Sequence record: KX689784
Reading direction: 5' to 3' (one strand)
Length of the DNA stretch: 39,024 bases
Source of the DNA: Escherichia phage JSS1
Position 1 is the first letter of the stretch, and each line of letters begins with the position of its first letter. Position numbers and translations under genes: made by a program. Positions 16,894 to 18,389 of the stretch are shown piece by piece. The notes under the pieces are model-generated. The model searched no databases. It was given only the letters and a program-made list of their open reading frames with translations, and was not told the DNA's origin.

Positions 16894-16906
16894 AGGCCCT
16901 CCTTAA

Positions 16907-16946
16907 GCAAAAAAACCCCTCAAGCACCCGAAGGCACCCAAGGGGT
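16907..16946 (-). terminator. Intrinsic terminator (T7 Tphi equivalent)
   Basis: Minus-strand RNA ACCCCUUGGGUGCC-UUCG-GGUGCUUGAGGGG then UUUUUUU: 13 bp stem including G-U pairs, UUCG tetraloop, U7 tract. Immediately after the 10B stop. Confidence 0.8.
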
Positions 16947-16951
16947 TTCAA

Positions 16952-18264
16952 TTAGTTTGTGAACGAAACGTTGAATGACCTAACGGTAGACCCGTCATAT
17001 CCAACAGTTACAAGACCTGTCACAGCATCGGTGGCCTTGAAGTAGAGACTTGAAGTTCTACGAGAGTAGCTCACACCATCCGGCATGGTTACATCCAGCA
17101 GAGACCAGTCGGTCACATCTGCCAGCTCAGGGAAGTCAACCTTAAGACTGACACCCACTGAGGACTCCAAGGTTTCCAAGGTAGGACCCTCAGTAGAGAG
17201 AGTCCTGAAGGTCATTAACCCTTTGCTGCTTGACTGAAAACCAGAGCACCAGCCGCTTCAGGGCGCAGACCACCGTGACCCATAGCGTATTTACCAACAA
17301 TCAGGTCGCCCTGAGCATCGACGTCACGGTCACGTTCCAGCGCCAAGTCACGCAGCTTCACAGTACCAACAGCAGAACGGTGAGAGAACAGACCCACAAC
17401 GTTGTCCATAGCAACTTTAACAGCGCCAGTAGCAGTTGCCGGGAATGCGTGTTTCTGACCGGAAGCGATAGAAATACCATCGTCACCACGAGTCTCACCA
17501 GCGCCACCCTGTACCAGATGCGGAACCTCGACAACAACGAAGCCCATCACGTTACGGATGTTACCAGTCTCTGGATCAATCAGCGCAGCATAGTTAGCAG
17601 CGTTCGGCATCAGAGCGGCGAGGATTGCAGAGTAGTTGTCAGGCGTGGTGTAGAAGTAACGGTCGCCAGCAGGAACGTAGTTGGAGGTCAGCTTCGCACG
17701 AGCAATGGTCAGTTGACCAATGATTGCCTCACCCAGCTTAGCCGGAGTGTTCAGGTCGGCTTTAGTACCAACTTCAAGTACTGACGCAGTGCCCAGACCG
17801 GCAATATTTTCGTTGGATGCAGCCGGGAGGTTACACAGGAGAGCCATTTCAGCCAGAACCGCACCATCAGCAGCGATAGCCAGAGCTTCACCCAACTGGT
17901 TGGAGTACTCGCCAGCCACGTCATAGTGGTTCATCGCGTCTTCAATGTCGAAAATCATCACATCGGCAGTCAGCAGACCATCAATGGTAATCACTTTCTC
18001 TGTATGTTTGATACCTTTACGCTTATCGGACAGTCGCTCACCCGGAGCCAGATACACACCAGAGGTGCGACCCATGACCGGGAACTGAGCAGACTTACCG
18101 TTCTGAATGGTACGGACAATATGCTTGTCAGCGGTTACAGAGCGGCGAGTGAATGCGGTCAGGACTTCACCAGCAAAGACCTTCAGGAACAACGCCAGAG
18201 CGTCGGAACTGGATTTGCCTTTACCTTGGTCTGTACCAATTTTCTGACCCGGAACGTTTGCCAT
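16952..18264 (-). CDS. 10B: Major capsid protein 10B, predicted -1 frameshift product of gene 10
   Basis: The -1 frame at the end of 10A is open across the slippery site and continues to TAA at 16952, adding about 94 aa. The arrangement parallels T7 10A/10B. Confidence 0.55.
17215..18264 (-). CDS. 10A: Major capsid protein 10A (349 aa)
   Basis: Very strong similarity to T7 gp10A (KSAQFPV.GRT, HTEKVITIDGLLTADV, MPNAANYAALIDPE, RSAVGTVKLRDLALER, GKYAMGHGGLRPEAAGA). AGGAGA RBS. Confidence 0.96.
   Translation of the reverse strand: MANVPGQKIGTDQGKGKSSSDALALFLKVFAGEVLTAFTRRSVTADKHIVRTIQNGKSAQFPVMGRTSGVYLAPGERLSDKRKGIKHTEKVITIDGLLTADVMIFDIEDAMNHYDVAGEYSNQLGEALAIAADGAVLAEMALLCNLPAASNENIAGLGTASVLEVGTKADLNTPAKLGEAIIGQLTIARAKLTSNYVPAGDRYFYTTPDNYSAILAALMPNAANYAALIDPETGNIRNVMGFVVVEVPHLVQGGAGETRGDDGISIASGQKHAFPATATGAVKVAMDNVVGLFSHRSAVGTVKLRDLALERDRDVDAQGDLIVGKYAMGHGGLRPEAAGALVFSQAAKG
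17236..17242 (-). other. Candidate -1 programmed ribosomal frameshift slippery site GGUUUUC
   Basis: mRNA CUG-GUU-UUC-AGU lies 6 codons before the 10A stop; the -1 frame stays open into the downstream ORF. Confidence 0.55.
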
Positions 18265-18366: not shown

Positions 18367-18389
18367 TCTCCCTATAGTGATAGTTTAGT
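18367..18389 (-). promoter_or_regulatory. Phage RNAP promoter (phi10-like), consensus class
   Basis: Minus-strand GGACTAAACTATCACTATAGGGAGACCAAGA; perfect GGGAGA initiation region. Confidence 0.85.

Follow-up and report, generated by a model that had tools for sequence, protein, structure and literature searches.

Programmed −1 ribosomal frameshifting between genes 10A and 10B of phage T7 was reportedly described by Condron, Atkins, and Gesteland in 1991. At the T7 slip site X_XX is G_GU, which is decoded by bacterial ribosomes, and a CCCC that lies over 200 nt downstream, in a terminator, takes part in the frameshifting by an unexplained mechanism (PMC5009743). The shift takes place in approximately 10% of translations (PMC1635266). 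The 10B tail of phage T3 also arises by a −1 frameshift and is Ig-like, and the addition of Ig-like tails to coat proteins by frameshifting has been reviewed (PMC5009743). Ig-like tails that phage coat proteins acquire in this way are also discussed in the 2026 Peru-2 preprint. The 10B protein of Kvp1 has been proven by mass spectrometry (PMC2579914), and a 10B-GFP fusion of K1F, the type species of Kayfunavirus, was viable and fluorescent (PMC6277420).

We analyzed the end of gene 10 in a 39,024-nucleotide stretch of DNA (the window). A 1.7-kb query spanning this region was 100% identical to Escherichia phage PE3-1 (KJ748011/NC_024379), which is classified in Autographiviridae, Studiervirinae, Kayfunavirus, and many K1F-like phages matched it at 91 to 96% identity. 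Relative to the PE3-1 genome, the window is reverse-complemented, and all gene 10 features are on its (−) strand. The gene 10A product matched the Pfam family PF21703 (Gp10A-like; E = 4.7e-105), as expected of an HK97-fold, T7-like capsid gene, and it also matched T7 10A (PDB 2xvr; E = 1.4e-145). Of the 7 promoter-like sites that the window contains, only the promoter ahead of the gene matches the consensus perfectly. The features of the locus are as follows.

18367..18389, (−) strand: phage RNA polymerase promoter ahead of gene 10, the phi10 equivalent (annotated in NC_024379)
17215..18264, (−) strand: gene 10A, major capsid protein, 349 aa (open reading frame list; Pfam)
17236..17242, (−) strand: slippery heptamer G GUU UUC in X XXY YYZ phase at Val342-Phe343, identical to the T7 site
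17221..17224, (−) strand: possible secondary slip site A_AAG, two codons ahead of the 10A stop (speculative)
17217-17215, (−) strand: gene 10A stop, TAA
17213..17215, (−) strand: ATG of an 87-aa open reading frame, overlapping the 10A stop as TAATG (open reading frame list)
16952..17236, (−) strand: putative 10B-specific −1 extension, 94 codons plus TAA; 10B would be join(18264..17236, 17236..16952), 437 aa
17177..17236, (−) strand: linker, extension residues 1 to 20, predicted to be disordered (AlphaFold2 pLDDT of about 47 to 52)
17124..17230, (−) strand: predicted multi-helix RNA structure, a candidate local stimulator, starting 5 nt 3' of the heptamer
16955..17176, (−) strand: predicted Ig-like beta-sandwich of seven strands, extension residues 21 to 94
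16905..16949, (−) strand: Tphi-like intrinsic terminator, a 17-bp hairpin (16949-16912) with CCCC and then a U-run (also annotated in NC_024379)

We conclude that the end of this gene is very likely a T7-type 10A/10B −1 ribosomal frameshift site, from which a minority 10B protein with an Ig-like tail would be made. A preliminary description of this DNA had proposed a geometry matching that of T7, and its elements stood up when we recounted them. It had placed GGUUUUC six codons ahead of the 10A stop, and GGTTTTC does lie at 17242-17236, followed by codons for S, Q, A, A, K, and G and then TAA. The −1 frame, described as open for about 94 codons to a TAA at 16952, has 94 codons and ends with TAA at 16954-16952. 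The terminator hairpin was said to follow immediately, and it starts 2 nt after that stop. The extension was also said to be longer than that of T7, given there as approximately 53 aa. T7 has 56 post-slip codons, for a net gain of 53 aa, versus 94 codons and a net gain of 88 aa here. The overall likeness to T7 10A/10B was upheld too, with an identical heptamer, a −1 extension past the 10A stop, and a homologous terminator adjoining it. The first post-slip codon is CAG at 17236-17234, the extension reads QSSSKGLMTF...NVSFTN, and the predicted 10B peptide across the slip junction is YAMGHGGLRPEAAGALVFQSSSK. The predicted masses are 36.4 kDa for 10A and 46.0 kDa for the 437-aa 10B.

The heptamer alone is unremarkable, with one GGTTTTC observed in the window and 3.8 expected. 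Therefore, the case for it depends on its position, context, and conservation. We gathered 72 related gene 10 ends from GenBank phages and IMG/VR loci; the scan of viral contigs returned 1 locus with a single-sequence query and 57 with an alignment-based query. Of these loci, 70, representing 64 distinct sequences, have a capsid end of the T7, K1F, or PE3 type, and in 70/70 of them [G/A/C]GTTTTC was at the same ...G(A/G)xVF position and the U UUC core was retained. T7, K1F, and all PE3-1-, CR8-, KP32-, and PP47-type relatives have the heptamer at a matching position. PE3-1 and T7 also have the capsid context of the heptamer in common (...GHGGLRPEAAGALVF). A run of four U's is too short for transcriptional slippage, which was dismissed as a cause at this site. 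The PE3-1 heptamer is identical to the T7 site, and from this we infer slippage in PE3-1.

By this route, most ribosomes would stop at the 10A stop and release the 349-aa protein. By analogy with the identical T7 site, a minority would move back by one base at G GUU UUC (Val342-Phe343), read 94 codons more, and end 2 nt before the Tphi-like terminator, making the 437-aa 10B. Its tail is modeled as a flexible linker of approximately 20 residues and then a 74-residue Ig-like beta-sandwich. If the analogy with T7 and T3 10B holds, the Ig-like tail would be displayed outside the capsid on a fraction of the subunits, where it might serve as an accessory module for low-affinity surface binding or for decoration.

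Substitution patterns point to coding selection in the −1 frame. Among nine Kayfunavirus sequences, dN/dS was 0.196 in this frame, whereas the remaining frames gave 1.63 and 1.94. Substitutions in codons 8 to 94 were distributed 315/258/875 over the three codon positions. However, the variable columns in linker codons 8 to 19 were distributed 5/2/3, which is no third-position excess in a comparison without power, and pairwise counts in the linker were dominated by a few deep splits. Therefore, coding selection is far better shown for the domain than for the first codons past the stop. These comparisons indicate that the −1 frame is under purifying selection, as best shown for its domain part. 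The downstream domain is also in the −1 frame relative to 10A in every clade, despite differing linker lengths. CR8 has 91 post-slip codons, L026/L027 have 93 to 94, Kayfunavirus sequences have 94, KP32-like Przondovirus phages have 96, and PP47-like phages have 103.

An AlphaFold2 model of the extension, made with a 72-sequence alignment, had a mean pLDDT of 85. Residues 21 to 94 were all-beta with a pLDDT of 94 to 96, and the first predicted strand of the domain was residues 22 to 26. Among PDB structures, Foldseek ranked first the Ig-like domain at the C terminus of lambda gpV, a tail tube protein (2l04; E = 1.3e-3, TM 0.55), and in BFVD it ranked first a homologue from Pectobacterium phage PP81 that is named "minor capsid protein." Therefore, PE3-1 tail residues 21 to 94 are confidently predicted to be an Ig-like beta-sandwich. 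As in the C-terminal domain of lambda gpV and in T4 Hoc, this would be a beta-sandwich at the C terminus of a virion protein, here with seven predicted strands and added by recoding. The matches of a PDB sequence search covered only the 10A part, and no solved structure contained the tail.

Fraser et al. are said to have recognized Big_2, I-set, and FN3 classes of Ig-like domain in phage virions in 2006. We found no recognized Ig-like family, such as Big_2, for the PE3-1 tail in Pfam at E ≤ 1, nor any other Pfam family for it or for the CR8 tail at that threshold. The KP32 tail had a single unrelated, sub-threshold Pfam match (CNRIP1; E = 0.075). The PE3-1 tail family corresponds to PHROG 7473, which is listed as "unknown function." When its profile was aligned with the T3 Big_2 tail by hhalign, no similarity was found (probability 0.1%). 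By sequence, this tail type is a distinct, unnamed family of predicted Ig-like tails, unrelated to the T3 Big_2 tail and to the T7 and K1F tails.

The family is widespread. A tblastn search with the extension found the domain beside gene 10 in 453 phage records, 152 of them with at least 80% query coverage, and the phages are mainly those of Klebsiella (KP32-like), Escherichia, Salmonella, Enterobacter, Pectobacterium, and Citrobacter. Identity within the family is 42 to 78%, with invariant motifs VTDWS, RR, and LY.K. When 1.84 billion representative proteins were searched with the family profile, no in-frame fusion of capsid and domain was found; the search returned only small open reading frame calls and weak multi-repeat matches of Ig type (Big_2, Big_1/invasin/filamin, BACON, and cadherin). 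CR8 10B, the minor capsid protein of Peacock, and the "minor capsid protein" open reading frames of KP32/PP47 have the same extension family as PE3-1, with linkers that differ between clades in both length and sequence.

Set beside T7, the PE3-1 locus has a homologous capsid gene, an identical G GUU UUC, and the same ...AAGA(L/V)VF context. In both phages the −1 extension ends just ahead of a homologous, CCCC-bearing Tphi, and gene 10 lies in a unit running from the phi10 promoter to Tphi. The tails differ, however. T7 has 56 post-slip codons encoding a non-Ig tail without a Pfam match, whereas PE3-1 has 94 and a predicted Ig-like domain. From the site to the 10A stop there are 3 codons in T7 and 6 in PE3-1, and the distance from site to terminator is approximately 200 nt in T7 versus approximately 295 nt in PE3-1. 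In T3 and phiYeO3-12, as proposed for PE3-1, ribosomes shift to the −1 frame shortly before gene 10 ends, and a minority of subunits thereby gain an Ig-like domain of approximately 90 aa. However, T3 slips at C CCA AAG, with a lysyl codon, rather than at G GUU UUC, and its domain belongs to Pfam Big_2 (E = 4.4e-10), whereas the PE3-1 tail has no Pfam family. The T3 10B stop is also approximately 160 nt before Tphi, whereas the PE3-1 stop adjoins the terminator.

K1F belongs to the same genus as PE3-1 and has the same heptamer and terminator. Even so, the K1F tail is of the short T7 type, with 48 post-slip codons (...EETLTPQQKAARTRAAN...), and this type was found in 35 phage records. The T7 and K1F tails share a short non-Ig motif, ...EETLTPxQxAARTRAAN.... 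K1F and PE3-1 thus combine a common capsid end and a near-identical terminator with different tails. Therefore, the segment from the slip site to Tphi behaves as an exchangeable cassette.

The stimulator of the slip might be a local structure 5 nt downstream or a long-range effect of the terminator, as in T7. The terminator hairpin has a predicted energy of −25.2 kcal/mol (z = −4.2), and its core, AACCCCTTGGG...GAGGGGTTTTTT, is common to PE3-1 and T7 Tphi. This CCCC-bearing terminator is about 295 nt downstream of the PE3-1 slip site, and the −1 stop is 7 to 15 nt ahead of the terminator core in all clades except T3. As for local structure, the 126 nt past the slip site fold better than shuffled sequences (z = −2.3 for the single sequence). 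RNAalifold analysis of 17 Kayfunavirus sequences predicted four helices, among them 17230-17219/17133-17124 and 17214-17202/17148-17137, with 97% of cells paired, although the structure came from the same alignment and has almost no support from covariation, with only two double changes, each in a single sequence. KP32-like relatives have an 18-bp hairpin 19 nt past the heptamer, with 99% pairing across 39 sequences. Covariation is seen at two neighboring pairs of this hairpin (AU/GC in 21/14 sequences and CG/UA in 23/12), and these changes alter linker residues (T to V and S to P). This covariation at the expense of the amino acid sequence suggests an RNA-level constraint in the KP32-like clade, which is outside the window and in which maybe just one or two evolutionary events were involved. 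A search of the whole window against Rfam found no family and no curated frameshift-element model.

By eye, the region 3' of the slip site has some complementarity to the 5' arm of the terminator, with AAGGGUU facing AACCCCUU in PE3-1 and GGGGG in T7. Nothing comparable was seen by eye in K1F and KP32-type sequences. Therefore, we make no claim for pairing between slip site and terminator.

The preliminary description had taken the ATG-initiated open reading frame at 16952-17215 most likely to be this extension and not a separate gene. Related loci bear that out, because the start is not conserved whereas the −1 relation and the heptamer are. The TAATG start is confined to PE3-1, ECG4, and close kin. 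ACG takes its place in the 15 other distinct Kayfunavirus sequences, whose first start is only TTG20, GTG27, or TTG31. The first in-frame ATG, GTG, or TTG is at codon 8, 9, 11, 13, 14, 20, 21, 24, 26, 27, 31, or 33, depending on the phage, and we found no conserved start codon with a ribosome-binding site for a small gene among related loci. Stand-alone open reading frames called by gene finders are 64, 68, 73, 75, 76, 83, 84, or 87 aa long, a variation expected if no real start exists.

The alternative that survives best is that PE3-1 uses both routes, making frameshifted 10B and also some free 87-aa domain of 9.4 kDa from TAATG. The overlap of the ATG with the 10A stop makes some additional free product possible. 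The ATG is also a derived character, present in a subclade of several protein clusters (P0001-P0004), and it overlies a frameshift geometry that is fully conserved. However, ATG and ACG differ by one base, which exchanges Met and Thr in the linker, so the change may be neutral. Furthermore, the Shine-Dalgarno-like element (AAGGG) is weak and only 3 nt upstream of the ATG, which is too close when compared with genes 10 and 11. We consider a second route of this kind unlikely.

Another alternative retains the frameshift but places it partly or mainly at A_AAG (GCA AAG GGU UAA), through slippage of a single tRNA-Lys. A_AAG is in 0-frame phase at 17224-17221, where the −1 frame is already open, and entry there would join the same −1 frame (...SQAAK-GLMTF...). 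There is a precedent in T3 and phiYeO3-12, which shift at lysyl codons (PMC2579914), the T3 site being the C CCA AAG described above. However, A_AAG is not conserved among Kayfunavirus relatives, most of which have TCA GCG GGT there, and a GCA codon in the P site would be unable to re-pair after a −1 slip. It is GGUUUUC that is conserved, and slippage at A_AAG in its place, or alongside it, seems improbable.

We give even less credence to the open reading frame as an independent gene, in which termination-reinitiation coupling at TAATG would yield a free 87-aa Ig-like protein with no frameshift. The ATG at 17215-17213 overlapping the TAA is a classic arrangement for such coupling, AAGGG is nearby, and gene callers report a stand-alone open reading frame in many genomes. 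Nevertheless, only the PE3-1/ECG4 subclade has the ATG, the called lengths scatter from 64 to 87 aa, and the spacing of the weak AAGGG is poor. In most relatives the only start would be GTG27 or TTG31, and initiation at either would delete the first predicted strand (residues 22 to 26), which lies upstream; this too speaks against an independent gene. The −1 relation to 10A also holds in all clades even though their linkers differ in length. Finally, a chance open frame or an assembly artifact with no extended protein, for which one might point to the roughly 1% of composition-matched shuffles that are open for 94 codons and to one relative (03_Eclo_IJM) with a broken −1 frame, is effectively refuted by the homologues in 453 phage records, the dN/dS of about 0.2 in the −1 frame only, and the confidently predicted fold, and 03_Eclo_IJM has a split capsid gene as well, which indicates poor assembly.

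A T7-type frameshift into the 10B tail is a recoding event of textbook type, and it is already flagged in the PE3-1 record, which states that gp10A [quoted passage not shown] The finding itself is of minor value for annotation. Phage Peacock, which has the same tail type, has a joined minor capsid protein coding sequence in its record. In the CR8 record, the homologous 10B is attributed to −1 frameshifting and credited with mass spectrometry matches, and no junction or extension peptide is mentioned; no mass spectrometry detail was found in the CR8 genome announcement. However, most records (KP32, PP47, U8, and others) have the domain annotated as a free-standing open reading frame with an arbitrary start. 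What our analysis adds is the distinct, unnamed family of predicted Ig-like tails and its wide misannotation as a free open reading frame, together with the swapping of tail types within a genus and a candidate local RNA element.

A broader proposal can be put together from these observations. An unnamed Ig-like family (PHROG 7473, in at least 453 genomes) would be swapped as a cassette between fixed recombination anchors at the slip site and Tphi, local RNA beginning 5 nt past the heptamer would drive the shift instead of or besides the terminator effect, and in the PE3-1 subclade a new TAATG start would free extra domain. As one joint claim, this is possible but doubtful.

The domain found in approximately 450 phage genomes, and mostly filed as "hypothetical protein" or "minor capsid protein," is very probably the C terminus of a frameshifted capsid protein. 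Reannotation affects proteome predictions, the engineering of capsid display, and the placement of tag fusions, such as the one made in K1F. The PE3-1 tail is a third type of 10B tail, beside the T7 type and the T3 Big_2 type. Tails of the PE3-1 type offer a natural system for the role of Ig-like domains on the capsid and for the stimulation of gene 10 frameshifting.

Kayfunavirus phages carry one of two alternative segments from the slip site to Tphi, the terminator hairpin directly 3' of the extension stop (compare K1F [L014], 860-1010, with the window, 16952-17242). K1F and EcoDS1 have a T7-type tail of 48 codons, found in 35 records, whereas the PE3-1 type has a 94-codon tail predicted to be Ig-like. 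Despite their different tails, the K1F and PE3-1 types have nearly identical Tphi terminators. Judged from these sequences, the difference looks like a cassette exchange.

Two motifs lie close to the 10A stop in the window:
17213-17217, minus strand: TAATG, a stop/start overlap
17221-17224, minus strand: A_AAG, a potential second shifty motif, in the context GCA AAG GGT TAA
TAATG is found only in the PE3-1/ECG4/LS2-type subclade, and the related gene-10 ends of other Kayfunavirus phages read TAACG at this position. Therefore, the 87-aa ORF call is lineage specific. A_AAG is 2 codons upstream of the 10A stop, and slippage there would lead into the same -1 frame as the extension. The motif was not found in most of the related gene-10 ends, but Salmonella phage ST10 does have CCA AAG. 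As for the primary heptamer, GGTTTTC occurs once in the 39 kb, counting both strands, against 3.8 copies expected from shuffles. This difference alone is not significant, and it may reflect avoidance of a shifty heptamer elsewhere in the window.

Seven phage-promoter-like sites (ACTATCACTATAGG...) were found on the coding strand of the window:
18367-18384, minus strand: site before gene 10, the sole perfect match
747, 6410, 13686, 19363, 22184, and 33863, coding strand: the other six sites
The perfect match ahead of gene 10 parallels the strong phi10 promoter of T7.

In several relatives, including U8 (L003) and phi1_146013 (L004), Tphi is separated from gene 11 by an insertion of ~100 bp that contains a tiny ORF and explains their two-piece BLAST matches. 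PE3-1 lacks this insertion. The extension frame is broken or ends differently at three loci (L010, L028, and L070). In L010 (Enterobacter phage 03_vB_Eclo_IJM) the capsid gene is also split, and so assembly errors are likely. The L028 match is confined to extension residues 1-53, and therefore this locus may encode a different C-terminal part.

The KP32-like Przondovirus loci (L013 and L032-L073) share a conserved 18-bp hairpin ~19-62 nt 3' of GGTTTTC. Two of its neighbouring base pairs covary (AU/GC and CG/UA). Because these changes alter linker amino acids, the covariation suggests selection at the RNA level just 3' of the frameshift site.
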